Shown piece after piece: positions 31,493-48,010 of a DNA stretch of 61,773 bases. A program made the position numbers and the translations under genes. The stretch covers positions 1 to 61,773 of the forward strand of contig CAZZBF010000007.1 of the NCBI GenBank assembly GCA_964652795.1, given 5' to 3'. How positions within the stretch are numbered: the first letter of the stretch is position 1; each line of letters opens with the position of its first letter. The notes beneath the pieces are model-generated. The model was given only the letters and a program-made list of their open reading frames with translations. It did no database searches and had not been told where the DNA came from. This stretch comes from an uncultured Syntrophales bacterium. Lineage in GTDB: Bacteria > Desulfobacterota > Syntrophia > Syntrophales > JADFWA01.

Positions 31493-31517
31493 AATAAGGA
31501 AAAGAAGACAACCACAC

Positions 31518-31556
31518 AAACAGAGGCGCACCCATACTATGGGTGCGCCTCTGTTT
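31518..31556. terminator. Bidirectional intrinsic terminator between convergent operons
   Basis: Perfect 19-bp inverted repeat AAACAGAGGCGCACCCATA-C-TATGGGTGCGCCTCTGTTT. Confidence 0.75.
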
Positions 31557-31597
31557 CGATCTACCTTTCAGATCATCTTATCTTTTGTAGTACCACC

Positions 31598-32572
31598 CTA
31601 CCCTTCCGGCACTTTGATCCACTCGTTGAGCACCTGCTGCACAACGCTGTAAGGGTCCTGCTCGTGATTCATGATCGCATCTACCAATTGTTCCATCTTG
31701 CCGGTTTCAGACAAGTGCTTCCGGAGAAGACTGAAAATTTCGTAGTGAATCATCTGAAGAGTCTGTTGCTGGGTCCGCTCGCGCCGCTTTTGCATAAAGG
31801 TACCGTCCTGCTTTAGATGTTCCTGATGTGATAATACAGCATCCAGAACATTTGTAACTCCAACATCATTAACGGCCGTGGCTTGGACAACCAAAGGTGT
31901 CCACGACTGGTTCCGGGTCCTACCCTTGATCTGGTCATCCTGACTCACTCGATGGGATACCTCTACAAAAAGCTGATCGGCCCCCTGACGGTCGGATTTG
32001 TTGATGACATAAACATCTGCAATCTCCATCACCCCCGCCTTCATAGTTTGGATCGCGTCTCCCAAACCGGGAGCCAAAACCAGGCAGGTAGTATCGGCGA
32101 TACGCATGACTTCCACTTCATCCTGCCCTACTCCTACTGTCTCAATAATGATTACATCCTTGCCTGCGGCATCTAGAACATTAACCACCTTACCTGTGGA
32201 TTGAGTCAAACCTCCCAGGAAACCGCGAGTAGCCATACTCCGGATGAAGACTCCCGGATCCTGCGCAATCTCGCTCATCCGGATCCGGTCTCCAAGTACA
32301 GCACCGCCAGTAAAGGGGCTTGAGGGATCAACGGCTATGATCCCCACGGTAAGCCCCTTTTCACGTATATGCCGGGTGAGTTTATCAGTAAGTGTGCTTT
32401 TGCCGGTACCAGGAGATCCTGTAATACCAATAATGTATGCCTTTCCTGTATGTAGATACAGCCTCTCCATACAGGGACGGGCAAGCTCATTTTCATTTTC
32501 TAGCCAGCTGATCACTCGCGCAATAGCTCGCGGGGATCCCTGGAGTATTTCACCAGCATAATCAATGGTCAT
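31598..32572 (-). CDS. meaB: Methylmalonyl-CoA mutase-associated GTPase MeaB/ArgK
   Basis: GSPGTGKSTL, AVDPSSPFTGGAVLGDRIRM, IETVGVGQDE, INKSD. Confidence 0.95.
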   Translation of the reverse strand: MTIDYAGEILQGSPRAIARVISWLENENELARPCMERLYLHTGKAYIIGITGSPGTGKSTLTDKLTRHIREKGLTVGIIAVDPSSPFTGGAVLGDRIRMSEIAQDPGVFIRSMATRGFLGGLTQSTGKVVNVLDAAGKDVIIIETVGVGQDEVEVMRIADTTCLVLAPGLGDAIQTMKAGVMEIADVYVINKSDRQGADQLFVEVSHRVSQDDQIKGRTRNQSWTPLVVQATAVNDVGVTNVLDAVLSHQEHLKQDGTFMQKRRERTQQQTLQMIHYEIFSLLRKHLSETGKMEQLVDAIMNHEQDPYSVVQQVLNEWIKVPEG

Positions 32573-32593
32573 TGTTTATCTTTCCTGTTATCC

Positions 32594-32992
32594 TCAAGAA
32601 CGGACATGTGTTGTGATAAAATCAACAATCTTGGGAGTAGGTGTCCCGGGTCCGAAAATCTCTGCTATTCCTACCTTCTTCAGTTCAGGTATGTCCTCTT
32701 CGGGAATAATCCCTCCGCCTACCACCAGGACGTCATTAAGTTTCTTTTCCTTGAGAAGTTCCACAACCCTCGGAAAGAAGTGGTTGTGCACTCCGGAAAG
32801 GCTGCTGAGACCTACAACGTCAGCATCTTCCTGAAGGGCCGCTTCCACTATCATCTCCGGTGTTTGCCTCAAACCAGTGTAGACCACTTCCATGCCGGCT
32901 TCTGCAAAAATCCGGGAAAGGAGCTTCGCACCACGGTCGTGTCCGTCCAGCCCTGGTTTCGCCACAATAATCTTTATCTTTTTATCTGCCAT
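32594..32992 (-). CDS. mcmB: Methylmalonyl-CoA mutase small (cobalamin-binding) subunit
   Basis: [10 protein letters not shown] (DxHxxG), GLSSLSG, GGGIIP. Confidence 0.95.
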
Positions 32993-33011
32993 AATATATT
33001 ACCTCCACGAA

Positions 33012-34691
33012 TTAAACGAATTCCTTTGGTCGATACTCTCCAAAAAGTTCACGCCACACATCGCATACTTCGCCGACTGTGGCCTTGGCCTTCACTGCTT
33101 CTATAACCGCTGGCATGACATTCTCGTCAGTCTTAGAGACTTCACGCAGATTGTCCAGAGCCTTCTGCCACGCAGCATTGTCACGCTCGGCTCGGAGTTT
33201 CTTCAGTTTTGCGGCCTCAACTTCTCCCAGTGCCATATCAACTTTGAGAAGACCGGTTGGTGGAGGCTCTTCCATAGTGTATTTGTTGACTCCCACGTAG
33301 GCCCTCTCTCCGGATTCAATCTCCTTCTGGAACTGATAAGAGCTGTTCTGGATTTCTTTTTGAATGTATCCCTCATCTATGGCGACCAGGGTACCACCCA
33401 ATTCATCAATCTTCTTAATGTACTGATCAATTTCAGCTTCGATCTGATCTGTAAGGGCTTCCACATAATAGGAACCGGCAAACGGATCAATTGTCAGACA
33501 AGCACCGCTTTCTTCGGCCACAATCTGCTGGGTCCTTAAGGCAACTGTCACAGCTTGTTGCGTCGGGAGACACAGGGCTTCGTCATAAGAATCAGTATGG
33601 AGAGACTGACATCCTCCTACAACTGCGGCGTAAGTCTGAAGACCCACACGCACAATATTGTTCAGCGGCTGCTGTGAAGTGAGTGTGACACCACCGGTCT
33701 GGACATGGTAACGCATCATCATGGATCGGGGATTCTTGGCTCCAAAGCGTTCCTTCATTACTTTTGCCCAGTAGCGTCTGCCTGCCCTGAATTTGGCTAC
33801 TTCTTCACAAACATTGGTAAAGACGTTGTAGAAGAAGCTCAGTCTCGGAGCAAAGTCATCTATGTCAATGCCCCTGTCGACACATGCCTGTGCATAGGCG
33901 ATTCCGTCGGCGATAGTAAATGCCATTTCCTGGGCGGCTGTGGCTCCTGATTCACGAATGTGATACCCGCTGATACTGATACTATTCCACCTGGGAACAT
34001 TTTTCTGGCAGTATGTTATCAGGTCAGTAGTAAGACGCATGGTCGGTCCGGGAGGATAGATGTACTGTCCACGACAGATGATCTCCTTCAGGACGTCATT
34101 CTGAATTGTTCCGCCTATCTTTTCAAAGGGAATACCCTGTTCTTCCGCGAGACTCAAGTACATGGCAAGGAGCACTGTGGCCGCGGCATTGATGGTCATG
34201 GAGGTGGTAACCTTATCCAGGGGTATCCCATCAAAAAGAATTCTCATATCCTCAATTGAATCGATCGCCGCTCCGACTTTACCAACCTCTCCCATTGAAA
34301 GAGGATGATCGCTGTCATAGCCCGCCTGGGTGGGAAGATGAAAAGCTACGCTCAAGCCCGTCTGTCCCTGTTCCAGAAGGTAGCGGTAACGGGCATTGGT
34401 CTCTTTGGCACTACCGAAACCGGCATACTGCCGCATGGTCCAGAATCTGCCCCGGTACATGGTTGGTTGGACCCCTCGCGTGAAAGGATACTCTCCGGGG
34501 AAGGAAAGCCTTTCTGCGTAGTCCAGATCTTTTACGTCTTCGGGGGTATAAAGACGCTCGATGGGGATTCCAGAGATACTGGTGAAAACTTCTTTTCGCT
34601 CGCCTCCCTTACTTAAAGTCTTCCCGAGCGTCCCAGCTTCCCAGTTCTCTTTTCCTTTTTTAACTCGTTCTAATTCCTTCTTATCAATCAT
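33012..34691 (-). CDS. mcmA: Methylmalonyl-CoA mutase large (substrate-binding) subunit
   Basis: PGEYPFTRG, TMRQYAGFG (Tyr, as in MCM; isobutyryl-CoA mutase has Phe), QNDVLKE, SISGYHIRE. Confidence 0.93.
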   Translation of the reverse strand: MIDKKELERVKKGKENWEAGTLGKTLSKGGERKEVFTSISGIPIERLYTPEDVKDLDYAERLSFPGEYPFTRGVQPTMYRGRFWTMRQYAGFGSAKETNARYRYLLEQGQTGLSVAFHLPTQAGYDSDHPLSMGEVGKVGAAIDSIEDMRILFDGIPLDKVTTSMTINAAATVLLAMYLSLAEEQGIPFEKIGGTIQNDVLKEIICRGQYIYPPGPTMRLTTDLITYCQKNVPRWNSISISGYHIRESGATAAQEMAFTIADGIAYAQACVDRGIDIDDFAPRLSFFYNVFTNVCEEVAKFRAGRRYWAKVMKERFGAKNPRSMMMRYHVQTGGVTLTSQQPLNNIVRVGLQTYAAVVGGCQSLHTDSYDEALCLPTQQAVTVALRTQQIVAEESGACLTIDPFAGSYYVEALTDQIEAEIDQYIKKIDELGGTLVAIDEGYIQKEIQNSSYQFQKEIESGERAYVGVNKYTMEEPPPTGLLKVDMALGEVEAAKLKKLRAERDNAAWQKALDNLREVSKTDENVMPAVIEAVKAKATVGEVCDVWRELFGEYRPKEFV

Positions 34692-34717
34692 AGTCTACCT
34701 CCTTTTAAAAGTTGTTT

Positions 34718-34829
34718 CCTTGTAACAATCCCCTGCACCATTGATTATTAAAAATCCACTGACGTATAGCAAAGAGTTGATAATGTGTCAAGCATTTAGT
34801 ACTTCCAATCCGCCTTGTAACACCCCTGC
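34718..34829. repeat. Direct repeat pair flanking the mutase promoter (candidate operator)
   Basis: CCTTGTAACAATCCCCTGC at 34718-34736 and CCTTGTAACACCCCTGC at 34813-34829. Confidence 0.6.
34763..34791 (-). promoter_or_regulatory. sigma70-type promoter of the mcmA-mcmB-meaB operon
   Basis: Minus strand TTGACA-17 bp-TATACG with extended -10 TG; AGGAGG RBS downstream. Confidence 0.65.
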
Positions 34830-35033
34830 CTTAAGAGACAAAATAGACGCGTAAAATACCTCTGTTATAAAGCTGTGCAATCGATAATTTTCAAAGCATC
34901 ATTTTTTCATAAAATACCTCGTTTATCGTGGGTCAAAATTAAAAAAAATATTGACACAAAGTATGTTGTTATGTTACGCCGTTCTCTGTGGTTCTTGTTC
35001 ATACTAAAAAAGTTTTAAGGAAGGAAATCGAAT

Positions 35034-36200
35034 ATGAAGATTCATGAGTATCAAGCGAAGGAGATCCTGAAGGAATACGGAATTCCCGTCCCTGAAGGAA
35101 GGGTAGCGAGTACCCCTGAAGAGGCCAAAAAAATAGCCTCCGAAATCGGGGGCGGCAAGGTGGTTGTCAAGGCCCAGATCCATGCTGGTGGAAGAGGAAA
35201 AGGAGGAGGGATAAAACTGGTTTCCTCGCCTCAGGAAGCGGAAGAGGCAGCAAGAGAAATTATCGGTATGCAACTGGTAACACCACAGACTGGCCCTGAG
35301 GGTAAAAAAGTAAAATCCGTACTGGTAGAAAAGGCTGGAGACATCAAAAAAGAACTCTACTTGGGAATAGTAGTCGACCGGTCTCGAAGCACGGAAGAAC
35401 CAGTAGTTATGGCTTCTCAGGCAGGTGGAATGTCGATTGAAGAAGTGGCGGCAGAAAACCCCGAGATGATCATAAAGGTTGCCGCTCATCCCGCAGGAAG
35501 TTTCAGCGGATACCAGGGAAGAAAAATTGCCTACGGTCTCGGGCTGGATAAACCTCTCGTGGGACAGGCATCTAAAATCGTGCAGAATCTTTACCAACTA
35601 ATGCTTGAAAAGGATGCTTCGTTAGTAGAAATTAATCCTCTGATCATCACTGCGGATGATCAACTTGTAGCTCTGGACGCCAAGATAAATTTTGATGATG
35701 ATGGCCTTTTCCGTCATCCGGAAATCTCAGAGTTGCGCGACACTGACGAAGAAGAACCCCTTGAAGTAGAGGCAAAAAATTTAGGGGTAAACTACATAAA
35801 ACTCGACGGAAACGTGGGCTGCATGGTCAACGGCGCGGGGCTCGCCATGACCACCATGGATCTCATAAAACTGGCAGGTGGTGAGCCGGCCAACTTCCTC
35901 GATGTTGGAGGGGGAGCTTCGGCAGAACAGATTGAAAACGCATTCAAAATACTCACCTCAGACAAAAATGTTAAAGCCATACTCGTTAACATCTTCGGGG
36001 GAATCCTCAGGTGTGATCGCTTGGCAAACGGAATCGTTCAAGCGGCAAGTAATCTGGACTTAAAAATTCCGATGGTTATAAGACTTCATGGCACCAATGA
36101 AGCGGAAGGTAAAAAAATCCTAGAGGAATCATCTGTAAAATTTGAAGTTGCTGATGGTCTCTATGAAGCCGCAGAAAAAGCGGTAAATATAGCAAGGTAA
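35034..36200 (+). CDS. sucC: Succinyl-CoA synthetase (ADP-forming) beta subunit
   Basis: [38 protein letters not shown]. Confidence 0.97.
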
Positions 36201-36225
36201 TAATTTTAGAGAGAGAGGTAAGACA

Positions 36226-37113
36226 GTGAGCATTCTATTAAATGAAGATAGTCGGATAGTAATCCAGGGAATTACTGGAGGTGAAGGGAGCTTCCATACC
36301 CGTGTATCGGTGGAGTTTGGAACCAACGTAGTGGCAGGTGTGACCCCCGGTAAAGGAGGAGCAGACATGGATGGAATCCCTGTCTATAACCGGGTGAGTG
36401 AAGCAGTATCAGAACAAGGGGCTAATGTCGCGGGAATATATGTTCCGGCAGCCTTTACTCCCGATGCCGTTTTAGAAGCCGTCGAAGCGGGGATTAAATT
36501 TGTTGTAGCCCTCACCGAGGGTGTTCCCGTTCTGGAAATGGTTAAGGTAAAAAAGGTCATGAAGGACTATGACGCTTATCTTATTGGACCAAATTGTCCC
36601 GGCATTACGACGCCAGGTGTGGGAAAAATCGGCTTCATGCCTAATTTTATCCACAAAAAAGGTAATGTGGGAGTCATCTCCCGAAGCGGAACTCTGACTT
36701 ATGAGGCGATTGATCAGCTGACCGCTCTGGGAATCGGACAATCAACTTCCATCGGTATCGGTGGTGACCCAATCGTAGGTTCCGGTTTTATAGATCTTCT
36801 GGAGTTGTATGAAAAAGATCCCCAGACGGATCTTATTGTTATGATCGGTGAGATCGGTGGAACCGCAGAGGAAGAAGCCGCTCAGTACGTAAAAGACTAC
36901 TTGACCAAGCCGGTCGTTTCCTTCATAGCCGGTCAGACCGCCCCCCCAGGCAGAAGAATGGGACATGCCGGTGCGATCATCGCCGGAGGAAAAGGAACCG
37001 CCGCTGAAAAGATGGCAGCGCTGACGAAAGCAGGCATAGCGGTAGTAAAGAACCCCGCCGAAATCGGGATAACCGCGAAAAAGATACTCGAAGAACGGGG
37101 GCTGCTTAAATAA
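36226..37113 (+). CDS. sucD: Succinyl-CoA synthetase alpha subunit
   Basis: [26 protein letters not shown] (phospho-His). Confidence 0.97.
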
Positions 37114-37269
37114 ATATAAATCCTCACTCAATTGAAAAGACAGGGGATATCAGATATATTCCGACCGAACCACTGTGAATGTTAGTTAATTGGAAAGGTA
37201 GACAAGCGGAAAAAGCTTAATAAGCCCTGTTTTCAAATAGAGCAGAGGCAAAAGGAAAGGAGGTCTTTA

Positions 37270-37671
37270 ATGAAGGTATCAAAAGTTGATCATATCGGAG
37301 TGGCGGTGAAGAGTATTGAAGAGGCCCTTAAATTGTATGAGGGTATCTTGGGACTAAAATTAGATGAAGTTGAAACAGTTGAAGAGCAGAAAGTCAAAGT
37401 GGCTTTTCTTCCTGTCGGGGATACTGAAGTAGAGCTTCTCGAATCTACCTCGCCCGACGGACCAATAGCCAAGTATATTGAGAAGAAAGGTGAAGGAATG
37501 CAGCATATCGCTTTTCGGGTTGAAAATATAGAAGAGGCTTTGAAAGAGCTCAAAGAGAAAGGTGTTCGCCTCATTGATGAAACACCGAGGATGGGAGCCG
37601 GAGGCGCGAAAATCGCTTTTGTTCACCCGAAAGAGACTTTTGGGGTTATGATAGAGCTGTGCGAAAGATAA
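37270..37671 (+). CDS. mce: Methylmalonyl-CoA epimerase
   Basis: [30 protein letters not shown]. Confidence 0.95.
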
Positions 37672-37726
37672 GATATTTTTAGTTAGATAGTAAATTAACG
37701 TTTTTAACTTAAGAAAGGAGTAGAAT

Positions 37727-39184
37727 ATGAGTAAGCTAAACTTGGAATTAACCGATATCAGGAGTGCCTTTCCTGATGACTTCACGGAAGCTCAGATTGC
37801 TGCGGGACAGACCCTGTTCCTCAAAGCACTCGCCGCCGATGTACACCAATTTTACGGCGGCAAAATGGTAACCGTTCCCAAGTGCGGGTTTTACGGTTTC
37901 AACTGGTACAACGTTTACTATACACCAGGTGTATCAATAGTTTCAACCACCATCAGAGATGACAACAATACATCCTTTGATATTACTAACCGTGGAAACT
38001 ATGTCGCTGTTGTCAGTGATTCTACCAGAGTCCTGGGTGATGGGGACTGTACGCCTCCGGGCGGTCTCGGGGTCATGGAAGGAAAAGCCTTCCTGATGAA
38101 GACCTTGGCAGGTATCGATGCTACCGCGCTGTGTGTCGACAGCAAGAACGCCAAGGGTGAAAATGATCCTGACAAAATAATTGAATTCGTGAAGATGCTT
38201 ACACCCAGCTTCGGCGCAGTCAACCTCGAAGATATTTCTCAGCCGAACTGTTTTAAGGTACTTGATGACCTTCAGGATTGTGATATTCCGGTGTGGCATG
38301 ATGACGCGCAGGGAACAGCTTGTGTAACCCTTGCTGGTCTCCTCAATGCCCTGAAACTTGTTGATAAACCTATCGGCGATATTAACATGGCCTTTTTCGG
38401 CGCCGGCGCCTCAAACACCACCATCGCCCGACTGATTATGCTGGCGGGTGCGGATCCTCAAAGAATCGTCATGTGTGATTCAAAGGGCGGTCTCCATACC
38501 GGTCGCGACAATATCAAAGCCGATCCGAGATTCTATCGTAAATGGGAAATCTGCGAAGCCACCAACCCGAAGAAGGTCGACAACATTGTAGACGCGATGA
38601 AGGGCGCAGATGTGCTTATTGCCCTTTCAACACCGGGACCCGGCGTAATTAAAGGCGAGTGGGTAAAAGACATGGCCGATAAATCCATCGTCTTCGCCTG
38701 TTCCAACCCGGTACCGGAAATTTATCCCTATGAAGCCATCGAAGCAGGCGCCTACATAGTCGCCACAGGAAGAGGAGATTTCCCCAACCAGGTAAATAAC
38801 TCCCTCTGTTTCCCGGGACTCCTGAAAGGCGCTCTCCTCACCAGAGCAAAGGGCGTAACGGACAAAATGGCCGTCACAGCCGCTCGTTCAATCGCCGCGA
38901 CTGCCGAACGTAAAGGCATAACTCCGACGAAGATTTCTCCTCTGATGAACGAACTCGATGTCTTCCCGCAGGAAGCAGCCGACGTGGCCATGCAGGCAAT
39001 AAAAGACGGCGTTGCCAGGGTAAAACCTACAGCGGAAGAGGTCTACAAGAAAACAGAAGAAGACCAGAAAAGTTCAATGGCCATCTATGACAGCTTGCAG
39101 GATTCTGGACTTATTGAAAAAGTACCAATGGATATGCTGGATAAAGCATTGAAGTCAGCTATCGACGGAATACGAAACGGTTAA
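37727..39184 (+). CDS. NAD(P)-dependent malic enzyme (no PTA domain)
   Basis: YTPGV, VMEGKA, NLEDI, WHDDAQGTA, GAGAS, NPVPEI, GRGDFPNQVNN. Confidence 0.93.
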   Translation: MSKLNLELTDIRSAFPDDFTEAQIAAGQTLFLKALAADVHQFYGGKMVTVPKCGFYGFNWYNVYYTPGVSIVSTTIRDDNNTSFDITNRGNYVAVVSDSTRVLGDGDCTPPGGLGVMEGKAFLMKTLAGIDATALCVDSKNAKGENDPDKIIEFVKMLTPSFGAVNLEDISQPNCFKVLDDLQDCDIPVWHDDAQGTACVTLAGLLNALKLVDKPIGDINMAFFGAGASNTTIARLIMLAGADPQRIVMCDSKGGLHTGRDNIKADPRFYRKWEICEATNPKKVDNIVDAMKGADVLIALSTPGPGVIKGEWVKDMADKSIVFACSNPVPEIYPYEAIEAGAYIVATGRGDFPNQVNNSLCFPGLLKGALLTRAKGVTDKMAVTAARSIAATAERKGITPTKISPLMNELDVFPQEAADVAMQAIKDGVARVKPTAEEVYKKTEEDQKSSMAIYDSLQDSGLIEKVPMDMLDKALKSAIDGIRNG

Positions 39185-39202
39185 TAGTCGGTCTAAGTTT
39201 CT

Positions 39203-39232
39203 TTAGGGGATGGACTCAAGTCCATCCCCTAA
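39203..39232 (+). other. Intergenic GC-rich hairpin without a U-tract
   Basis: TTAGGGGATGGACT-CA-AGTCCATCCCCTAA, perfect 14-bp arms. Confidence 0.6.
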
Positions 39233-39265
39233 GATGAATGTCAAACTAATAAGGAGCAAGGTAAG

Positions 39266-40105
39266 ATGAGAGAAATTTCTTGCGATGAGATTATTAAAGT
39301 AATAAGAGGCCTTTGTATTGACGCCGACTGCAATCTTGGAGATGATGTCGAGGCCGCTTTTGACAGGGCAATCGAAAAAGATGAATCTCCTGTAGCCGTG
39401 GAGGTTATAAAAGAACTGAAGGAGAACTCAAAGATTGCCCGGGAAGAACTGGTCCCAATCTGTCAGGACTGCGGTCTTGCCGTTTTGTTTATTGAACTGG
39501 GGCAGGAAGTTCATATCGTCGGCGGTGACTTCAAAGAGGCCGTTAACGAAGGGGTCAGACAGGGATACGCCGATGGCTACTTAAGAAAATCGGCCTGTCA
39601 TCCCTTTACCCGAAAGAATACCGGAGACAATACCCCGGCCATTATTCACACCGAGATCGTACCGGGAGATAAAATGAAGATAACCATCGCTCCTAAAGGT
39701 GGTGGCAGTGAAAACATGAGCAGGGTAACCATGCTCACTCCCGCTATGGGTATAGAAGGAGTAAAGGATTTTGTTGTGCAAAGATTGGCAGAAGCCGGTT
39801 CCAATCCCTGTCCTCCCACAGTGGTCGGTATAGGTGTGGGTGGAACATTTGAACGCTCGGCATTTCTGGCCAAAAAGGCACTGCTCCGAAAGATAGGGGA
39901 AAGGAATCCCGATCCGGAACTGGCAAAGGTAGAAGAAGAAGTTCTCGAGAGAATCAACAAGCTCGGGATCGGTCCGATGGGATATGGAGGAAACACAACC
40001 TCCCTCGATGTATTATTTGAAATGGAACCATGCCATATTGCCAGCTTACCGTTGGCGGTTAACATTCAGTGCCATGCGGCAAGACATAAAGAGGCTGTTA
40101 TTTAA
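39266..40105 (+). CDS. fumA: Class I fumarate hydratase, alpha (Fe-S) subunit
   Basis: PICQDCG, KGGGSEN, NPCPP, QCHAARH. The TCA context favours fumarase over tartrate dehydratase. Confidence 0.88.
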   Translation: MREISCDEIIKVIRGLCIDADCNLGDDVEAAFDRAIEKDESPVAVEVIKELKENSKIAREELVPICQDCGLAVLFIELGQEVHIVGGDFKEAVNEGVRQGYADGYLRKSACHPFTRKNTGDNTPAIIHTEIVPGDKMKITIAPKGGGSENMSRVTMLTPAMGIEGVKDFVVQRLAEAGSNPCPPTVVGIGVGGTFERSAFLAKKALLRKIGERNPDPELAKVEEEVLERINKLGIGPMGYGGNTTSLDVLFEMEPCHIASLPLAVNIQCHAARHKEAVI

Positions 40106-40254
40106 CGATTACTTAATCAAACCACATATTACTCTATAATAGTGTTCTTTAGCATGATATTTTGTCACGTTGTGAGTGCAAATGATTGAGCGGTTGTACG
40201 CTAAAAATACTTCATAAGTTGTGGTTTAGGGAAGTACTAACGCTGGAGGGAAAA

Positions 40255-40812
40255 ATGTCAGAACAGATAAAATTGACTACCCCGCTTTCTGATGAAGACG
40301 TGGAAAAGTTGAATATTGGAGATAAGGTATTCTTGACTGGTACCATCTACACCGGAAGGGATGCCGCCCATAAAAGATTAGTAGATTTGCTCGATGAGGG
40401 CAAGGAACTGCCTATCGATGTCAAAGGTCAGGTAATTTACTATGTTGGGCCAGCGCCTGCCAAACCCGGACAGGCAATCGGTTCTGCCGGTCCCACAACC
40501 AGTTACCGCATGGATGCCTATGCCTATAGGCTTATGGAGTTGGGGCTGAAAGGAATGATTGGTAAGGGAAACCGTGCCCCGGAAGTTATCGAGGCCATGA
40601 AAAAACATAAAACGGTATACTTCGGTGCTACCGGAGGAGCAGGTGCCCTTATTGCTAAAAGCATAAAAAAGGCAGAAATTGTTGCCTATGAAGACCTCGG
40701 ACCCGAGGCCCTCCGGAAATTAGAGGTAGAAAATTTTCCGGTAGTGGTAGTTAACGATGTCAGGGGAGGAGATCTTTACGTTGAAGGAGCTAAAAAATAT
40801 CGGAAAGAGTAA
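40255..40812 (+). CDS. fumB: Class I fumarate hydratase, beta subunit
   Basis: GRDAAHKR, GPTTSYRM, GMIGKG, GGAGAL. Confidence 0.88.
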   Translation: MSEQIKLTTPLSDEDVEKLNIGDKVFLTGTIYTGRDAAHKRLVDLLDEGKELPIDVKGQVIYYVGPAPAKPGQAIGSAGPTTSYRMDAYAYRLMELGLKGMIGKGNRAPEVIEAMKKHKTVYFGATGGAGALIAKSIKKAEIVAYEDLGPEALRKLEVENFPVVVVNDVRGGDLYVEGAKKYRKE

Positions 40813-41082
40813 ATCAACCGACTAATAGAACGTTTCATCAATGGATCCACAACGGCATTTGCAATTACGGAGGGTTATGAAGTAGTTTTATTGCTTTATT
40901 CTGTCTTATGTGGTTTTAAGTTTTCTTCTTTTCTACACAGTATGTCCATTGCAAGCTCATAAAGGCTTACCTATGGAACGTTCCATTAGATAGATTGTTT
41001 TTCCTATTTTTTGCTCAATGCTTAACGAATAAAGAAAGATTTATTGAAAATTCTTTATAATTTTAATGAGGGGATGGAAGAT

Positions 41083-42828
41083 ATGGTAAATTTGGGATAC
41101 ACTAATAAGACAGAAGTGGTTACGCATGACGTCTTGATCTTTGGTACAGGACTGTCCGGGTTTCGGGCAGCACTGGAGATTGCCCAGAAAACTAAGGACT
41201 CGGTAAATATGGGCCTTCTCTCCAAGGTTCAGATCCAGCGTCCCCACTCGGTATGTGCCGAAGGTGGTTCGGCAGCGGTTATGCGAGAGGATCAGGGTGA
41301 CAACTTTGATATTCATGCATGGGACACCGTCAAGGGCGCAGACTTCCTGGCAGACCAGGATGTGGTATATCACTTTGTGGAAAATTCCCCCAAAGAGATC
41401 TTGCAGATGGACCACTGGGGAATGCCCTGGTCAAGAACCGAAGACGGCAGGCTCAAACAGCGCCCCTTCGGAGGACACAGTTATCCTCGAGCCACCATGG
41501 CTGCGGACAAGACTGGTTTCTTTGAAATACAGGTTCTCTATGATACCCTTTTGAAGTATAAGAATTTCTGCCGGTATGATGAATTCTTTGTCACCTCTAT
41601 CTTAACGGATAAGAAGGGTGATTTTGCCGGTGTTACGGCAATAGACATGTGTACCGGAAAATTCTACGTTATGCGTGCCAAGGCTATGCTCATTGCTACT
41701 GGTGGTATTGGAAACCTTTACAGTTTCACCACCTATTCCCAGACCGTTACAGGGGATGGCCATTTGGCAGCATACCGTGCCGGGTTGAACCTTGAGGATT
41801 CAGAGTTTCTCCAGTTTCACCCCACCGGTCTAATCCCTAGCGGTATTCTTATGACCGAAGCGTGTCGTGGTGAAGGAGGGTATCTCAGAAACTCTAATGG
41901 TGACAGATTTATGGACAAATATGCCCCGGATAGGATGGAGCTGGCACCCCGTGATCTCGTCTCTCGCTCTATGATAACCGAGATTTTAGAAGGCCGAGGT
42001 TTTAAAGGACCCGAAGGGTTGGATTATCTCCATCTGGATCTTACTCACCTGGGAGCAGACCATATCAACAGTGTCCTGCCATTAATCCGGGAGGTTTGTC
42101 TTGATTATATCGGACTTGATCCTATCGAGAAACCGATCCCGGTACGTCCTGTTGCCCATTACTCCATGGGAGGAATCGAGGCAGATATCAACGGAGCAAC
42201 TAAGATGAAAGGTGTCTGGGCAGCGGGAGAATGCGCCTGTTATTCTCTCCACGGCGCCAACCGCCTCGGTTGTAATTCCACAATGGAGTGTATTTTATGG
42301 GGAAGGTTTACCGGCGAAGAGATAGTGAAATATCTTGATACAAACCCGCCACTGGCAGATATGCCGTCAGACAAAGTTGATGCGGAATACAAGCGTCTCT
42401 ATATTGATCTCCTACAAAAGAAAGGTAAAGAAAATCTTTACGATATCAAAACGGAACTCAGGAGAACAATGGGTGAACATGTAGGGGTCTATCGTACCGG
42501 ACAAGGCCTAAGTGATGGGTTGAAAAAAATCAGGGAACTGCAGAAACGATTTAAAGACATCTATATTCAGGACAGTGGTCATGTGTACAATAACAATATG
42601 ATCAATGCCCTTGAGACTGAAAACCTCCTTGATCTGGCCGAAGGATTGGTTTCGGCGGCACTGGCCCGTGAGGAATCCCGAGGGGGACATGCCCGTACTG
42701 ATTTTCCGGTTCGTGACGATGAAAACTGGCTCAAACATACACTGATAAGCTATACTAAAGATGGGCCAAAACTTAGCTACAAACCAGTAACGATCACCAA
42801 ATGGTTACCGGTAGAACGTAAATACTGA
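41083..42828 (+). CDS. sdhA: Succinate dehydrogenase/fumarate reductase flavoprotein
   Basis: HSVCAEGG (covalent FAD His), [33 protein letters not shown]. Confidence 0.95.
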
Positions 42829-42838
42829 GGAGAAGAAA

Positions 42839-43276
42839 ATGGAAAAAAAGAGATACGATAATCACCTCGAACTTTGGGGTTGGCTAGGAGGCGGTAAATG
42901 GGGAATAGAGCGCTATCTATATACCCTTCACCGGATCACAGGAGTAGGTATCCTGCTTTTCTTCATGATCCACATATTTGAGAGTTCTACCAGAATCTTT
43001 GGCATGAAGACGTGGGACATTATTATGAAAGGTATGGAATTCCCTGTTTTTAAGATCGGTGAAGTTTTGGTCTTTACAGCATTCGCCTTTCATGCCTTGA
43101 ATGGAATCCGGCTTATTCTGATTGAACTGGGATTTATGGTAGGAAAACCAGAACAACCGGTCTATCCGTACCAATCATCACTGAATGTACAGCGCCCAAT
43201 GATGATGGTAATAATGGTAATAGTTGTCGTTCTCATATTAGCTGGAGGCGTCGACATTATCTTTCTACATAAATAG
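42839..43276 (+). CDS. sdhC: Succinate:quinone oxidoreductase cytochrome b subunit
   Basis: LHRITG, FMIHIF, AFHALNG; three TM segments. Confidence 0.85.
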   Translation: MEKKRYDNHLELWGWLGGGKWGIERYLYTLHRITGVGILLFFMIHIFESSTRIFGMKTWDIIMKGMEFPVFKIGEVLVFTAFAFHALNGIRLILIELGFMVGKPEQPVYPYQSSLNVQRPMMMVIMVIVVVLILAGGVDIIFLHK

Positions 43277-43294
43277 GAAAGGAGGATTTATCTC

Positions 43295-43672
43295 ATGAAT
43301 AAAAGTGGACCTTGGATATTGTTCATTGTTGCGGCAGTTGTAATTTTTGTCTTTCTCGGGTTGCACATGATGATTGTTCATCTGGATACCCTCCTTGGAG
43401 GAATCGGCAGTCCCGCAGGGGGTTCGGCTCTTGCCTGGGAGAATGTAATTCAGCGAAGCCAATCTAACTTTTTCACTGTTACTTACATTATTTTATTGGC
43501 AGCAGCGCTCTACCACGGATTTTACGGGCTACGTACCATCATATTTGAATTTGGCCCCAGAAAAGAGGCCGAGGGAGCTTGGACCACCTTCTTATGGATA
43601 GTAGGCATCGTTCTTTTCATCGTTGGCACCGTTGCTGCTATCGCGGTACGAACAGTACAAACAGCACTTTAG
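43295..43672 (+). CDS. sdhD: Succinate:quinone oxidoreductase hydrophobic anchor subunit
   Basis: GLHMMIVH, LYHGFYGLR; three TM segments. Confidence 0.8.
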   Translation: MNKSGPWILFIVAAVVIFVFLGLHMMIVHLDTLLGGIGSPAGGSALAWENVIQRSQSNFFTVTYIILLAAALYHGFYGLRTIIFEFGPRKEAEGAWTTFLWIVGIVLFIVGTVAAIAVRTVQTAL

Positions 43673-43685
43673 AAAGGATAAGAAA

Positions 43686-44501
43686 ATGGCAACCAATATT
43701 ACCTATAATATTAAACGTTTTGATCCTGAGAAGGATGAGGGTCCACGGTGGCAACAGTTTACCGTGCCGGTGGAACCTGGGATGACTGTGCTGGACGGTT
43801 TGCACTGGATTAGAGAAAATCAGGATGCGTCCCTTGCCTGGCGTTATTCCTGTCGGATGGGGGTATGCGGTTCCTGCGCCATGTTGATAAATGGAACACC
43901 ATGTATGGCCTGTAATACCCAGATTCTGCACGTAACTGATCGTGTGTTAACCATTGCACCTCTTCCAAACTTTAATGTAATTAAAGACCTGGTACCGGAC
44001 TTAATACCAATGTTAGAAACACACGCTTCCATCTTTCCTCAAATCGAGCGAACGGACGTCCAGGAGATGGAAAATCCCACGGCAGAATACATACAATCCG
44101 TCGAGGAGCTTGAAAGGTACCTTCAGTTCACCTATTGCATGAAGTGTGGCTGTTGTATTGCAGCCTGCCCTGGGTCGGCTACAGACCGGAATTATCTTGG
44201 ACCGATGCCTCTTACACAGGCGTACCGCTATAGTGTGGATACCCGTGATGATGGTCAGAAAAAGAGAAACGCTAAAGTGAGTGAACCTCACGGTGTTTTC
44301 AGCTGCCATTATGCAGGAGAGTGTTCCAAAGTATGCCCCAAGGGAGTTGACCCGGCACGGGCTATCCAACTGATGAAAAAAGACCTGGTTTTAGGTTATC
44401 TGAAACTTCAGGGCGCAAAAAAACCGGCAAAGTTAGTAGGTCCTCCGAGTGGTGAAACCAAACCGAAGATTGAGGCCCCCGCATTTACGGTAGAACAGTA
44501 A
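43686..44501 (+). CDS. sdhB: Succinate dehydrogenase/fumarate reductase iron-sulfur subunit
   Basis: CRMGVCGSC..C [2Fe-2S], CMKCGCC..ACP [4Fe-4S], CHYAGEC..VCP [3Fe-4S]. Confidence 0.95.
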   Translation: MATNITYNIKRFDPEKDEGPRWQQFTVPVEPGMTVLDGLHWIRENQDASLAWRYSCRMGVCGSCAMLINGTPCMACNTQILHVTDRVLTIAPLPNFNVIKDLVPDLIPMLETHASIFPQIERTDVQEMENPTAEYIQSVEELERYLQFTYCMKCGCCIAACPGSATDRNYLGPMPLTQAYRYSVDTRDDGQKKRNAKVSEPHGVFSCHYAGECSKVCPKGVDPARAIQLMKKDLVLGYLKLQGAKKPAKLVGPPSGETKPKIEAPAFTVEQ

Positions 44502-44726
44502 AAACGGATGGAAAATCCGAACAGTTTTATTTGCCCTTTTGAAGATAACCAAAATATTTGTTTAAGTATGGAAAGAGGACTCTGAGAGCGAAAAATATTT
44601 TGAGCATCGAAGAGTCCTTTTTCAAATTATTACCGAGTGAAAATTTACTCCGCTCGGTTTGTTCTAATCAGGCACATTTTCTCGAATTTACAAAAGTTGA
44701 ACCAAATACAAATAAGGAGGTGTCTT

Positions 44727-46349
44727 ATGGCTGAGGAGATGGGAGCAAAATGGACCACCACTGAAGAGTGGGCTCTTGAAAGAGAAAAGAAGTATAACGA
44801 AGTTAAGGAAAAGTATAAAGATAAAAAATGGCCTGAGCTGACCACAGAGGAGAAATATGAAATTTTTGAAGCTCGCAAGGCCGTCCTGGAACGGATGGGT
44901 GGTGTAAGGGGAATAAATCGGCAACATGACAGAGGCAAGTATACGGTAAGGGAAAGAGCAGATAAACTGTTTGACCCGGGATCATTTGTCGAAATTGGAT
45001 TGCATTGTAAATCCTCATGTCTTTCGTACGATTTGTATAAGGTTGCCTCCGAGGATATGCCCGCGGACGGTATTCTGGCAGGTTACGGACTCGTCGACGG
45101 AAGGCCGGTATATGCCTTCTTCCAGGATTTTACAACATGGGGAGGAACACTGGGAAAAACACATGCGGAAAAGATTAAAAGAGTTTCCGGTGAGGCTGTA
45201 CAGAACAATTGTCCTATCGTCTATATTGCCGACTCCGGTGGCGCCAGGATACAGGAGGGAACTGACTCCCTGGCAGGATACGGTGACCTGTTCTACGTAA
45301 ACAGCATATATTCCGGCTGTGTTCCGCAACTTTGCGGCATAATAGGACCATGTGCCGGAGGAGCCGTTTATTCTCCTGCGCTGATGGATTGTATCTTCAC
45401 GGTAGAAGGTGAAACTGAAATGTTTATCACCGGGCCCATAGTTATAAAGGCTGTTTTGGGGCAGGAAGTCGGAAAGGAAGAACTTGGCGGTGCAAGAGTA
45501 AACTGTGAGCGAAGTGGAAACGCTGCATTTTTTGCAAAGGACGAAGATGAATTTATAGCACAGCTGAAGAAACTGCTCAGCTTCCTGCCGGGTAGTGCCA
45601 AGCAGAAGCCTCCCTACGTAGAAACCGGCGATTCACCGGACAGGACTACACCGGAGTTAAGGAAAATAATACCTGACAGTCTGAATGAGCCATTTGATAT
45701 GAAGAAGATCATTGAAACAGTCGTCGACAATGGTGACTTTCTTGAATGGCAGGAACTCTTTGCGCCGAGCCTTATATGCGCCTTTGCCAGAATGAATGGA
45801 AATTCGGTAGGAATAATAGCGCAGAATCCGATGCATCTTAATGGTGATGTTACAATGGACTCCGGCGACAAGGGATCAAAATTTATGAGACTGTGTGATG
45901 CTTACAACTTACCTCTTATAAGTTTTATCGATGCGTCAGGGTACGCTGTCGGAAAGGAGCAGGAGGTAGGAGGGATAATCAGACATAACGCGAAGCTGAT
46001 CCAGGCTTACGCCGAAGCTACAGTCCCCAAAATTACTATTATTACAAGAAAGGCATTTGGAGGACCAGCTTTACTCGGTTCTAAAAATCTTGGTGCTGAT
46101 TTAGTCTTGGTATGGCCAACATGTGAGATGGCTGCTGCGAGTCCTGAGCAGGCCGTGAGTGTTATCGGTGGAGATGAGATGGATTACAGAAATCACTTCT
46201 CAGATCCGGCTGTACCGGCAACAAAGCTGCACATTGACGAAATCATAGATGCTGCTGACACCAGGCCTCTTATATGTAAGGCGCTTAATATGTTCGAGCA
46301 GAAATCTGTCGATCTGCCTTACAAGAAACATAACATCAAGCCGCATTAG
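44727..46349 (+). CDS. Acyl-CoA carboxyltransferase paralog 1 (PccB/MmdA/transcarboxylase 12S family); canonical N-domain, degenerate C-domain
   Basis: DSGGARIQEG and GPCAGGAVYSPA are intact; C-domain motifs altered (DASGYAVG, RHNAK, AFGGPALLGSK). AAGGAGG RBS before ATG 44727. Confidence 0.9.
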   Translation: MAEEMGAKWTTTEEWALEREKKYNEVKEKYKDKKWPELTTEEKYEIFEARKAVLERMGGVRGINRQHDRGKYTVRERADKLFDPGSFVEIGLHCKSSCLSYDLYKVASEDMPADGILAGYGLVDGRPVYAFFQDFTTWGGTLGKTHAEKIKRVSGEAVQNNCPIVYIADSGGARIQEGTDSLAGYGDLFYVNSIYSGCVPQLCGIIGPCAGGAVYSPALMDCIFTVEGETEMFITGPIVIKAVLGQEVGKEELGGARVNCERSGNAAFFAKDEDEFIAQLKKLLSFLPGSAKQKPPYVETGDSPDRTTPELRKIIPDSLNEPFDMKKIIETVVDNGDFLEWQELFAPSLICAFARMNGNSVGIIAQNPMHLNGDVTMDSGDKGSKFMRLCDAYNLPLISFIDASGYAVGKEQEVGGIIRHNAKLIQAYAEATVPKITIITRKAFGGPALLGSKNLGADLVLVWPTCEMAAASPEQAVSVIGGDEMDYRNHFSDPAVPATKLHIDEIIDAADTRPLICKALNMFEQKSVDLPYKKHNIKPH

Positions 46350-46381
46350 AACCTGAAAAAAGAGAAAGGAGGTTGTTCCAG

Positions 46382-47959
46382 ATGGCTAGTGAAAAAACAT
46401 TCGCAGAAATGTCAACATTAGAAAAGTCTGATTTTTTGAAAAGTGAGCAGGCAAGAATCTATGAAATGGGCGGAGCAGAGGCAGTAAAGCTCCAGCATGA
46501 CATGGGGAAATATACAGCAAGGGAACGGATAGAAAAATTGTTTGACCCCGGGTCCTTTTTCGAAATAGGGGAATTCTGCAGATCGGTAACACCGCATTAT
46601 GACATATTCAAGGAGGCACCACCTGCCGATGGCGTAGTAACAGGATACGGGACTATTAACGGAAGGGTTGTTTATGGTGCCTTCCAGGATGCTACGGTCA
46701 TGGGTGGAACACTTGGGATTATACATGCCGACAAGATAGTGAGAGTCCTTCAGGAAGCCAACAATGTCGGATGTCCGATGCTCTATCTCGTCGACTCAGA
46801 AGGATTGAGGATAAAGGAAGGGCCCGATTCCCTGGCCGGTCTCGGAGATTTGGTGTATAATATGACCCTCTATTCAGGAGCCATTCCTCAGATTTGTGCC
46901 GTTATGGGAACATGCTCGGGCGGAATGACAATTGTCCCGGGACTCGCAGACTGTGTATTCACCGTGGATAAGATAACCAAGATGTACGCCAACGCCCCGA
47001 CAACGATAGCTGCCGCTACCGGCGAAGAAGTCGGAGATGAAGATATCGGTGGAGCGGCTGTTCACTGCGGAAAAAGCGGTGTCGGCACATTCTTGACCAA
47101 GAGCGAAGATGAGTGTCTCGAACAAATAAAAAGGTTTCTCAGCTTTCTACCGGGCAGCGCCAAGGAAAAACCGCCCTATGTTGAAACGGGTGATCCTGCG
47201 GATAGGATATCAGAAGCACTGGCGACGATTGTACCCGACAAAGCAACACGTCCCTTCAATATGAAGAAAGTGATCGGTGAAGTCGTGGATAACGGAGACT
47301 TTATGGAGTGGCAGGACAGATATGCCAGAAATCTTATATGTGCTTTAGCCAGAATGGATGGAAATACGGTAGGCATACTGGCACAGAATCCTATGGTTAT
47401 GGCGGGCTGTCTCGATGTTGACTGTTCCGATAAGGGCTCCAGGTTTATCAGGTTCTGTGATGCCTATAATATACCTATACTCAATCTTGTTGATGTCCCG
47501 GGATATCTTCCGGGAACGGATCAGGAGTGGAACGGCATAATTAGACATGGCGCAAAAATGCTCTTCGCCTATTCCGAAGCGACCGTGCCTGAAATAACTG
47601 TCGTTACACGAAAGGCATACGGAGGTTCTTACCTGGGCATGTGTTCCAAAGACGTCGGTGCAGATGTAGTTATGGTATGGCCTCCATGTGAAATGGCGGT
47701 TATGGGACCATCGGGCGCAGTGGGTATCATTGAGCGTAAAGCGATAAAAGAAGCGGAAGATCCTGCCGTAAAGAAAGATGAATTAACTATAGAGTACGTA
47801 AACCGCTTCCTCGTACCTACGGCTCCGGCAGCAAATCTGAATCTGGATAAAGTTATAGATCCTGTACAAACAAGACCGTTAGTTTGCAGGGCTCTTAAAC
47901 TGTTCAAAAATAAGGACCTAAAGCTGCCGTACAAGAAGCATGAAGTTATGCCGGAATAA
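46382..47959 (+). CDS. Acyl-CoA carboxyltransferase paralog 2 (PccB/MmdA/12S family); degenerate N-domain, canonical C-domain
   Basis: DVPGYLPG, RHGAK, RKAYGGSYLGMC and MAVMGP are intact; N-domain motifs altered (DSEGLRIKEG, GTCSGGMTIVPG). Confidence 0.9.
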   Translation: MASEKTFAEMSTLEKSDFLKSEQARIYEMGGAEAVKLQHDMGKYTARERIEKLFDPGSFFEIGEFCRSVTPHYDIFKEAPPADGVVTGYGTINGRVVYGAFQDATVMGGTLGIIHADKIVRVLQEANNVGCPMLYLVDSEGLRIKEGPDSLAGLGDLVYNMTLYSGAIPQICAVMGTCSGGMTIVPGLADCVFTVDKITKMYANAPTTIAAATGEEVGDEDIGGAAVHCGKSGVGTFLTKSEDECLEQIKRFLSFLPGSAKEKPPYVETGDPADRISEALATIVPDKATRPFNMKKVIGEVVDNGDFMEWQDRYARNLICALARMDGNTVGILAQNPMVMAGCLDVDCSDKGSRFIRFCDAYNIPILNLVDVPGYLPGTDQEWNGIIRHGAKMLFAYSEATVPEITVVTRKAYGGSYLGMCSKDVGADVVMVWPPCEMAVMGPSGAVGIIERKAIKEAEDPAVKKDELTIEYVNRFLVPTAPAANLNLDKVIDPVQTRPLVCRALKLFKNKDLKLPYKKHEVMPE

Positions 47960-47976
47960 TACTGGCTGAAGCTTTT

Positions 47977-48010
47977 AAAAAGGGGCGACTGAAAAGGCGC
48001 CCCTTTTTTT
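47977..48010 (+). terminator. Intrinsic terminator
   Basis: AAAAAGGGGCG-10 nt-CGCCCCTTTTTTT. Confidence 0.75.

Follow-up and report, generated by a model that had tools for sequence, protein, structure and literature searches.

The DNA stretch analyzed here (61,773 nucleotides, referred to as the window) comes from a syntroph-like anaerobe and carries a single cluster that holds nearly the entire succinate/propionate (methylmalonyl-CoA) pathway, including both its soluble and its quinone-linked steps. We propose that it encodes a sodium-coupled form of the pathway connecting succinate and propionyl-CoA, in which two clustered carboxyltransferases (CT1 and CT2) and a membrane module from contig C17 act as a Na+-dependent decarboxylase, malic enzyme (ME) provides the C4/C3 link, and the flux is mainly towards propionate; we give this proposal about an even chance of being correct. 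It is a variant with precedent, a modest rewiring of known parts and not a new pathway, and Na+-type decarboxylases in candidate propionate oxidizers have already been discussed (PMC8892533, PMC13082233).

In methanogenic digesters and sediments the conversion of propionate is a bottleneck, and genome-based assignments of “propionate oxidizers” usually rest on methylmalonyl-CoA genes, while in this organism it is the carboxyl-handling step that decides the energetics. A practical annotation rule for such bins is to look for 5S/OadA, biotin carboxylase and OadB.

Gene Content of the Cluster

Gene identities in the region 31598–47959 were assigned by Pfam and NCBIfam profile searches, as follows.

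31598..32572, minus strand: meaB, G-protein chaperone of the mutase (PF03308, 296 bits; TIGR00750, 341.9 bits, cut-off 240.75)
32594..32992, minus strand: mcmS, B12-binding small subunit of methylmalonyl-CoA mutase (PF02310, 92.5 bits; TIGR00640, 164 bits)
33012..34691, minus strand: mcmL, catalytic large subunit of methylmalonyl-CoA mutase (PF01642, 736 bits; TIGR00641, 793 bits)
34692..35033, no strand: divergent intergenic region, 342 bp
35034-36200, plus strand: sucC, ADP-forming succinyl-CoA synthetase (NF001913, 566 bits, cut-off 370)
36226-37113, plus strand: sucD, ADP-forming succinyl-CoA synthetase (NF004230, 428 bits, cut-off 336)
37270..37671, plus strand: mce, methylmalonyl-CoA epimerase (TIGR03081, 171 bits, cut-off 114.95)
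37727..39184, plus strand: class II malic enzyme, 485 aa (PF03949, 94 bits, and PF00390, 64 bits, both above cut-off)
39266-40105, plus strand: fumA, alpha subunit of class I (Fe-S) fumarase of the two-subunit form (NF004885, 419 bits, cut-off 276)
40186-40812, plus strand: fumB, beta subunit of class I (Fe-S) fumarase (NF005310, 296 bits, cut-off 238)
41044..44501, plus strand: sdhA-sdhC-sdhD-sdhB (NF004724, 836.5 bits, cut-off 826; PF01127, twice; NF004616, 271 bits)
41044-42828, plus strand: SdhA
42839-43276, plus strand: SdhC
43295-43672, plus strand: SdhD
43623-44501, plus strand: SdhB
44727..46349, plus strand: CT1, carboxyltransferase paralogue 1, PccB/12S/MmdA type (PF01039, 478 bits)
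46373..47959, plus strand: CT2, carboxyltransferase paralogue 2 (PF01039, 503 bits)

The genome contains no second copy of mcmL, as determined by tblastn. The sdhACDB genes are predicted to encode a succinate:quinone oxidoreductase or fumarate reductase with a two-subunit anchor; several His residues are present in the anchor (positions taken from the translations), which may be dihaem. The start of CT1 was placed at the ATG at 44727, preceded by an AAGGAGG ribosome-binding site, the longest open reading frame beginning at 44637.

This inventory agrees with the first-pass annotation, which had described the mutase, MeaB, SucCD, epimerase, succinate:quinone oxidoreductase, fumarase, ME and carboxyltransferases around one divergent region. 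It had also reported that mdh, CoA-transferase and pyruvate:ferredoxin oxidoreductase are missing from the window; indeed, all matches to Ldh_1_C, POR_N, AcetylCoA_hyd_C, CoA_transf_3 and CoA_trans are located on other contigs.

Carboxyltransferases and the Membrane Module

CT1 and CT2 share 51% identity and show reciprocal motif degeneracy. CT1 keeps an intact N-domain motif (DSGGARIQEG) but has changes in its C-domain motifs (DASGYAVG, KAFGGPAL), while CT2 has an altered N-domain motif (DSEGLRIKEG) and intact C-domain motifs (DVPGYLPG, KAYGGSYL). A motif alignment revealed that this pattern is kept across the genus, and that single-copy homologues retain all three motifs. CT1 and CT2 are therefore most likely subunits of a heteromer in which each pair has a single functional active site; such a half-dead split pair is a candidate obligate heteromer.

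The best PDB matches of both proteins are PccB, 12S and MmdA-like proteins. Their TIGR01117 scores (595 and 645 bits for CT1 and CT2) lie under the strict cut-off of 998.8, and their PF01039 matches (478 and 503 bits) identify them as carboxyltransferases of the type that forms the alpha subunit of Na+-translocating methylmalonyl-CoA decarboxylase (Mmd). No further carboxyltransferase gene was found in the genome by tblastn with CT1 and CT2.

The remaining types of Mmd subunit, an OadB-family beta subunit, a small biotin carrier and an OAD_gamma-family anchor, are all encoded by a small operon on contig C17. This operon is conserved in the genus and contains the only OadB, the only OAD_gamma-like ORF and the only biotin carrier of the genome.

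L004:8741-8884: OAD_gamma-like anchor, 47-aa ORF upstream of oadB (PF04277, 33 bits, cut-off 27)
Contig C17, single copy: OadB (PF03977, 522 bits; TIGR01109, 503 bits, cut-off 190.6)
Directly after oadB: biotin carrier, 73 aa, with an EAMKME motif (PF00364, 74 bits), the only good Biotin_lipoyl match of the genome

Other biotin-dependent routes lack essential components. Searches for the PYC_OADA domain (5S/OadA/PycB; PF02436) gave no match in this genome, with an estimated completeness of 98.8%, or in any of its four congeners, whereas 25 of 26 genomes searched in the order's other genera have it. Consistently, tblastn with the OadA-like protein of a same-order relative, G025, matched solely the biotinyl domain on C17 and revealed no OadA or 5S gene. 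Biotin carboxylase (Biotin_carb_C, PF02785) is likewise absent from all five genomes, leaving no ATP-dependent propionyl-CoA carboxylase. For a transcarboxylase of the 12S+5S+1.3S type, a 12S-type carboxyltransferase and a small biotin carrier are present, the latter in the oadG-oadB operon and not beside any 5S gene, while a 5S subunit (HMGL-like plus PYC_OADA) is missing in the genus.

Since there is no other carboxyltransferase and no OadA, CT1 and CT2 are the only possible alpha partners of the C17 module. The absence of PYC_OADA from this genome and its congeners also means that a transcarboxylase recycling the oxaloacetate carboxyl is not usable. These data suggest that the carboxyl step is performed by a Na+-coupled methylmalonyl-CoA decarboxylase like those of Veillonella and Propionigenium, in which the CT1/CT2 heteromer would form the alpha part, and the OAD_gamma-like anchor, OadB and the 73-aa biotin carrier would form the membrane part; both assembly of the complex and its Na+ coupling are predicted from gene content. 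The earlier expectation that the carboxylation energetics must differ from those of the standard route is thus supported by the C17 operon being the only possible partner of the carboxyltransferases.

The organization departs from that of a typical Mmd, with one operon and a single complete alpha subunit: the alpha genes are two paralogues located on contig C7, whereas C17 carries the membrane module. This location on different contigs counts against the proposed complex. A role of OadB in a glutaconyl-CoA decarboxylase was considered and rejected: tblastn revealed no extra carboxyltransferase gene, and CT1 and CT2 best match PccB/12S/MmdA types and are located with the epimerase and mutase genes.

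Malic Enzyme and the Oxaloacetate Node

The clustered ME is the only malic-enzyme family gene of the genome (sole Malic_M match). It has the Malic N-terminal and NAD(P)-binding domains of class II enzymes and full-length likeness to a solved structure, PDB 3NV9, deposited as “Malic enzyme” (E 1.6e-199, residues 1–482, 485 versus 487 aa). The alignment shows conservation of the glycine motif of the dinucleotide fold and of the acidic motifs at the metal site, and the DSKG context past the glycine motif presumably resembles that of NADP-type enzymes. We take 3NV9 to be the malic enzyme of Entamoeba histolytica, a eukaryotic cytosolic protein whose origin by transfer from anaerobic bacteria has been suggested (Field et al. 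2000, cited in PMC5958461). In a quick tree of ME, G012 groups with a bin titled Syntrophus, which is the sole basis of the order-level placement as Syntrophales-like.

The class II malic-enzyme family includes soluble oxaloacetate decarboxylases (PMC5958461), and, as malate dehydrogenase (MDH) is encoded in the genome, the clustered protein could mainly act downstream of it, decarboxylating oxaloacetate as a soluble enzyme without need for NAD(P), as CitM does in lactic acid bacteria. The full-length match to 3NV9 and the conserved glycine and metal-site motifs make this highly improbable.

MDH, a TIGR01763 equivalog, is encoded on contig C62, next to an unrelated radical-SAM gene. PEP carboxykinase (PEPCK), located on another contig, citrate synthase and PPDK/PPS-type enzymes are also encoded, and their presence together with that of MDH indicates that an oxaloacetate node exists. 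The initial view that ME is used rather than malate dehydrogenase consequently fails at the genome level. The suggested variant route is supported only in part: with MDH and PEPCK encoded, the genome does not do without oxaloacetate, but the genus has neither a transcarboxylase 5S subunit nor a biotin carboxylase. The whole-genome inventory recovered mdh, OadB and the small biotin carrier, with 5S and biotin carboxylase absent, so that of the two parts of the standard pathway sought outside the window, mdh and a complete transcarboxylase, only the first is present.

The availability of MDH, PEPCK and PPDK, which could carry the C4/C3 flux in place of ME, counts against the proposed pathway. 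In that case the chemistry would be standard and its genes scattered, with MDH and PEPCK operating together with pyruvate kinase or PPDK, and ME being an anaplerotic or NADPH-supplying side enzyme that travels with fumarase. ME-fumAB adjacency does recur in many unrelated lineages without methylmalonyl-CoA genes nearby, and ME may have taken over an anaplerotic role in this genus, which has lost pyruvate carboxylase. However, every one of the five species of the genus has ME inside the operon, flanked by mce and fumA; an OadA-like gene occupies the corresponding mce-fumAB block of G025, and MDH is encoded next to the unrelated radical-SAM gene. We consider this explanation unlikely.

Energetics and Direction of the Pathway

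In the proposed sodium-coupled pathway, ME would link malate and pyruvate directly, and MDH and PEPCK would serve the oxaloacetate node for biosynthesis. Because the genus lacks 5S, OadA, pyruvate carboxylase and biotin carboxylase, the carboxyl group of methylmalonyl-CoA is not exchangeable with pyruvate/oxaloacetate. Towards propionate, pyruvate, CO2 and NAD(P)H would yield malate, which would be converted via fumarate and succinate to succinyl-CoA; the latter would be rearranged to methylmalonyl-CoA and decarboxylated to propionyl-CoA and CO2, with export of Na+. The potential of the oxaloacetate/malate couple is about -172 mV and that of pyruvate+CO2/malate about -330 mV, and decarboxylation of methylmalonyl-CoA proceeds with about -27 to -30 kJ/mol. 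Compared with wiring through transcarboxylase and MDH, about 2 Na+ would be conserved per turnover towards propionate, and the same amount would be spent towards oxidation. On energetic grounds, we expect catabolism to run mainly by forming propionate or decarboxylating succinate, the pathway being reversible in principle.

Some features of the genome fit the opposite direction. SucCD, and not a succinate:propionyl-CoA CoA-transferase, is encoded at the operon head, which suits an oxidative pathway that gains ATP, like that of syntrophic propionate oxidizers, and the Syntrophales-like order is a setting where oxidation is expected; both observations count against a propionate-forming role. It is possible, if somewhat doubtful, that propionyl-CoA derived from propionate, odd-chain or branched substrates is oxidized to pyruvate independently of transcarboxylase. 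The complex of CT1/CT2, biotin carrier and OadB, reversed on a Na+ gradient, would carboxylate propionyl-CoA; SucCD would yield ATP, Sdh would oxidize succinate, and ME would convert malate to pyruvate for 2-oxoacid:ferredoxin oxidoreductase. MeaB, mutase and epimerase genes accompany SucCD as in the mmc clusters (PMC8892533), and the syntroph-like lineage encodes Rnf and four POR_N-type oxidoreductases and lacks dsrA. For Cloacimonadota, operation of Na+-Mmd in reverse has been suggested (PMC13082233), and Na+-Mmd genes have been noted in syntrophic propionate oxidizers (PMC8892533).

On the other hand, oxidation by this route would cost about 2 Na+ more per propionate than the transcarboxylase route, which we estimate to be close to the one-third ATP gained by syntrophic propionate oxidation. 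Acetate kinase was not found in the genome. CoA-transferase candidates are encoded at six places, none of which reaches an equivalog cut-off, which weighs against the propionate-forming reading as well; no enzyme activating propionate or succinate can be named among them. Sulfate reduction was rejected, as dsrA is absent from the genome and from ten relatives.

Carboxylation by the complex may nevertheless have a physiological role, since malonyl-CoA is needed in the genus (FabD is encoded in all five genomes) and no acetyl-CoA carboxylase was found; this need is also in line with oxidative operation. The broader idea that the CT1/CT2-biotin carrier-OadGB complex, the only biotin enzyme of the genus, works as the physiological carboxylase of propionyl-CoA and the source of malonyl-CoA appears rather unlikely to us. 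If correct, carboxylation would be powered either by the Na+ gradient or by transfer of carboxyl groups from one acyl-CoA ester to another, allowing syntrophic propionate oxidation without transcarboxylase or ATP and with ME releasing CO2, while the same complex would feed fatty-acid synthesis with malonyl-CoA in place of acetyl-CoA carboxylase.

Comparison with Related Systems

Like MmdABCD(E) of Veillonella parvula and Propionigenium modestum, the putative decarboxylase combines a PccB/12S-type carboxyltransferase, an OadB-family subunit, a small biotin carrier and an OAD_gamma-family anchor, and mutase and epimerase are found alongside. Unlike in these organisms, its alpha part consists of two reciprocally degenerate paralogues encoded within a 15-gene central-metabolism cluster that also contains malic enzyme and is separate from the operon for the membrane module, and the host is Syntrophales-like, with no other biotin enzyme found.

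The mmc clusters of Pelotomaculum thermopropionicum and Syntrophobacter (PMC8892533) share with the window MeaB, split mutase, epimerase, SucCD, two-subunit fumarase, Sdh and a 12S-type carboxyltransferase. In contrast to these clusters of syntrophic propionate oxidizers, MDH, 5S, pyruvate:ferredoxin oxidoreductase and CoA-transferase do not accompany the pathway genes here; MDH, pyruvate:ferredoxin oxidoreductase and CoA-transferase candidates are located on other contigs. The literature search revealed no description of a malic enzyme within an mmc-type cluster.

The relative G025 carries a related cluster (locus L105) with the order SucCD-McmLS-Mce-CT-OadA-like-FumAB-OadB-BCCP-SdhCAB. SucCD, McmLS, Mce, the carboxyltransferase, FumAB and Sdh are 43–70% identical to those of the window, and OadB and the 73-aa biotin carrier match the C17 copies at 51–63%. 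The location of the latter two genes within this syntenic cluster ties them to the methylmalonyl-CoA pathway. G025 has a single carboxyltransferase with all motifs intact, and the OadA-like protein comprises HMGL-like, PYC_OADA and biotinyl domains. ME is absent from this cluster and was not found in G025 with the window ME as a query; the mce-fumAB block thus contains an oxaloacetate-handling gene in G025 and ME in the window.

A Bacteroidales bin (JAQVOJ010000005.1, locus L022) encodes SucCD-FumAB-SdhAB-ME-Mce-CT-BCCP-OadB in one cluster, with an ME 66% identical to that of the window, so that the combination of ME, Mce, carboxyltransferase, biotin carrier and OadB is not unique. Unlike the window, this locus has a single carboxyltransferase, Sdh/Frd of another type (26–28% identity) and an adjacent membrane module; no mutase is present within the 21 kb fetched.

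Conservation and Control Region

The four other species of the genus have the identical gene order: in three, the 15 genes are complete and bordered by the same polysaccharide genes, and in the remaining one the contig stops after sdhD. Given this conservation, the arrangement is not due to chance. A recently inserted island was rejected, since other members of the genus have the same flanks and mutase genes are widespread in the order; the GC content is 46.7% for the cluster and 43.5% genome-wide.

A scan of positions 31000–48600 for consensus promoters and terminators yielded sites no more numerous than in shuffled sequences. Alignment of the divergent region 34692–35033 from the five species revealed two conserved TTGACAC boxes, which we read as putative promoters.

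About 34786-34797, minus strand: TTGACAC box 1
About 34953-34962, plus strand: TTGACAC box 2, with an A-rich tract upstream

Organization and Conservation of the Methylmalonyl-CoA Gene Cluster

All genes named in the first-pass annotation were found within 31598–47959 by ORF listing and Pfam/NCBIfam scans:

Minus strand: meaB and both mutase subunits, B12-binding and large
34692–35033, 342-bp gap: divergent control region
Plus strand, past the gap: sucC, sucD, methylmalonyl-CoA epimerase (Mce) and a 485-aa malic enzyme (37727–39184)
Plus strand, downstream of malic enzyme: both subunits of a class I fumarase, sdhA-C-D-B and a pair of carboxyltransferase genes, CT1 (44727–46349) and CT2 (46373–47959)

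CT1 most likely starts with the ATG at 44727, which has an AAGGAGG site upstream. Alignment of the control region revealed two blocks invariant in all five species of the genus, each containing TTGACAC, one per direction; a run of eight A precedes the plus-strand block. By inference from sequence, these blocks are probably the two promoters.

The same genes occur in the same order in all four congeners (74–99% protein identity); three contain all 15 genes, and the contig of the fourth stops past sdhD. Genes for polysaccharide and sugar-nucleotide metabolism flank the cluster on both sides (27873–31492 and 48218–50214). The same Polysacc_synt_2 gene lies past meaB in three congeners, and GDP-mannose dehydratase lies past CT2 wherever the congener locus extends that far. 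The GC content of the cluster is 46.7%, versus 43.5% genome-wide and about 40–42% in the flanks; since the congeners have the same flanks, any insertion of the cluster is older than the genus.

Carboxyltransferase System and the Oxaloacetate Node

A whole-genome inventory, the check suggested with the first-pass annotation, was run on the contigs of the window's genome (2.48 Mb, 80 contigs, completeness rating 98.8%; the window is C7:1–61773). Domain searches of this genome detected neither biotin carboxylase nor the PYC_OADA domain of transcarboxylase 5S, OadA and pyruvate carboxylase B, and tblastn with the OadA-like protein of a relative matched only a biotinyl domain. The one good biotin carrier match is a 73-aa protein on contig C17, directly downstream of the single OadB/MmdB gene; a 47-aa ORF upstream of OadB passes the OAD_gamma model (33 bits, cut-off 27). 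No carboxyltransferases or mutases beyond those of the cluster were found by tblastn. Since CT1 and CT2 are the sole carboxyltransferases and the C17 operon has no other alpha partner, their products are most parsimoniously predicted to assemble with the OadG-like, OadB and carrier proteins as a Na+-translocating methylmalonyl-CoA decarboxylase (Mmd).

PYC_OADA was detected in none of the five genomes of the genus versus 25 of the 26 others searched in the order, and biotin carboxylase likewise in none of the five versus 20 of the 26; all five carry OadB. These absences are a genus trait rather than an assembly gap. With CT1/CT2 assigned to Mmd, the earlier suggestion that the carboxyl group is not recycled via oxaloacetate is right for the genus. 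Replacement of malate dehydrogenase by malic enzyme was too strong a claim, because the genome encodes an ordinary oxaloacetate node: one Ldh/Mdh-family gene on contig C62 (bacterial malate dehydrogenase equivalog, 433 bits, cut-off 351.85), a divergent-subfamily PEP carboxykinase (505 bits, cut-off 369) and citrate synthase, the latter two outside the window together with PPDK/PPS-type enzymes. The PEP carboxykinase gene adjoins an aminotransferase gene on C69:1–7647 (locus L093). Two B12-uptake genes on this contig, for a TonB-dependent receptor and for the ATPase of a corrinoid ABC transporter, fit the B12-dependent mutase.

CT1 and CT2 are 51% identical, and their best structural matches are PccB, 12S and MmdA-like proteins. 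They were aligned at the motifs with single-copy enzymes from G025, a relative in another genus of the order, and from a Bacteroidales bin; these homologues keep DSGGARIQEG, DVPG(F/Y)xPG and YGG(A/S). CT1 retains the first, N-domain motif and has altered C-domain motifs (DASGYAVG and KAFGGPAL), whereas CT2 has an altered N-domain motif (DSEGLRIKEG) and two intact C-domain motifs. The congeners show the same reciprocal degeneracy. In this family each active site lies between two chains, one contributing its N domain and the other its C domain, so the sequence pattern is what an obligate heteromer would show, in which every CT1/CT2 pair has a single live site.

Malic Enzyme and Comparison With Related Clusters

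The malic enzyme, the only one in the genome, aligns end to end (E 1.6e-199) with PDB 3NV9, the Entamoeba histolytica enzyme, whose entry is titled "Malic enzyme"; the glycine-rich dinucleotide motif and acidic metal-site motifs are kept in the alignment. A minor alternative is that this protein is a soluble oxaloacetate decarboxylase, since class II malic enzymes include such decarboxylases (PMC5958461). A quick tree built from 84 sequences places the malic enzymes of the genus together with those of two further families in the order (support 98), nested within a 485-aa clade from Bacteroidota, Spirochaetota, Fidelibacterota and Cloacimonadota; those of other Syntrophaceae belong to the clade of shorter enzymes. 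This pattern suggests, without proving, lateral acquisition of the 485-aa enzyme. The methylmalonyl-CoA pathway itself was not recently imported, because many genomes throughout the order carry mutase genes.

G025 is the most informative relative. Its cluster (L105, G025:C7:8000–27000) reads SucCD-McmL-McmS-Mce-carboxyltransferase-OadA-like-FumAB-OadB-73-aa carrier-SdhC-like-SdhA-SdhB, an arrangement that ties the OadB/carrier module to the methylmalonyl-CoA pathway. Between mce and the fumarase genes it has an oxaloacetate-handling carboxyltransferase, the OadA-like protein (691 aa; HMGL-like, PYC_OADA and biotinyl domains), where the window's genus has malic enzyme. It also differs in having a Rieske-domain protein (17907–18503) downstream of sdhB, and a single Sdh_cyt-type anchor ORF was found in it instead of the window's sdhC-sdhD pair. 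Outside the order, the Bacteroidales bin (L022) has a single cluster, SucCD-FumAB-SdhAB-malic enzyme-Mce-carboxyltransferase-carrier-OadB. A Syntrophaceae bin (L075) has McmL-Mce-malic enzyme-FumAB-SdhAB-SucC; malic enzyme within such clusters thus recurs.

All parts of the system are known, the Na+-Mmd pathway being a classical one, and the Bacteroidales bin has the same combination. Particular to this case are the loss of all other biotin enzymes throughout the genus, malic enzyme in the place where G025 has its OadA-like gene, the split and degenerate alpha subunit, and the membrane module apart from the alpha genes. A literature search found no published description of this cluster variant.

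Energetics and Direction

From textbook values, the net conversion of pyruvate, methylmalonyl-CoA and NAD(P)H to malate and propionyl-CoA releases roughly 28 kJ/mol. Transcarboxylase with malate dehydrogenase would dissipate this energy, while malic enzyme with Mmd would store it as about 2 Na+, so the latter wiring would be advantageous towards propionate. On these energetics, propionate formation or succinate decarboxylation is favoured as the main direction, with about an even chance of being right. Ranked after it, and rather unlikely, is Na+-driven oxidation. SucCD at the head of the operon and the syntroph-like setting support oxidation, but its cost would be about equal to the whole yield of syntrophic propionate oxidation, roughly one-third ATP. 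Published work proposes such oxidation in Cloacimonadota (PMC13082233) and mentions it as possible in syntrophic propionate oxidizers (PMC8892533).

Outside the window the genome encodes Rnf and four POR_N-type 2-oxoacid oxidoreductase alpha subunits; it has only four acyl-CoA dehydrogenase genes, and dsrA was not found in it. Acetate kinase was not found in the genome, so the free acids must be released from acetyl-CoA and propionyl-CoA in another way, such as by a CoA-transferase or an ADP-/AMP-forming synthetase. None of six CoA-transferase candidates, all encoded outside the window, reached an equivalog cut-off.

Malonyl-CoA Supply

FabD (malonyl-CoA:ACP transacylase) is encoded in all five genomes of the genus, in which no AccA-type carboxyltransferase, biotin carboxylase or conventional BCCP was found. 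For malonyl-CoA the genus has a single candidate source, the CT1/CT2-carrier-OadB complex, which would form it by working in reverse or by passing the carboxyl group of methylmalonyl-CoA to acetyl-CoA.
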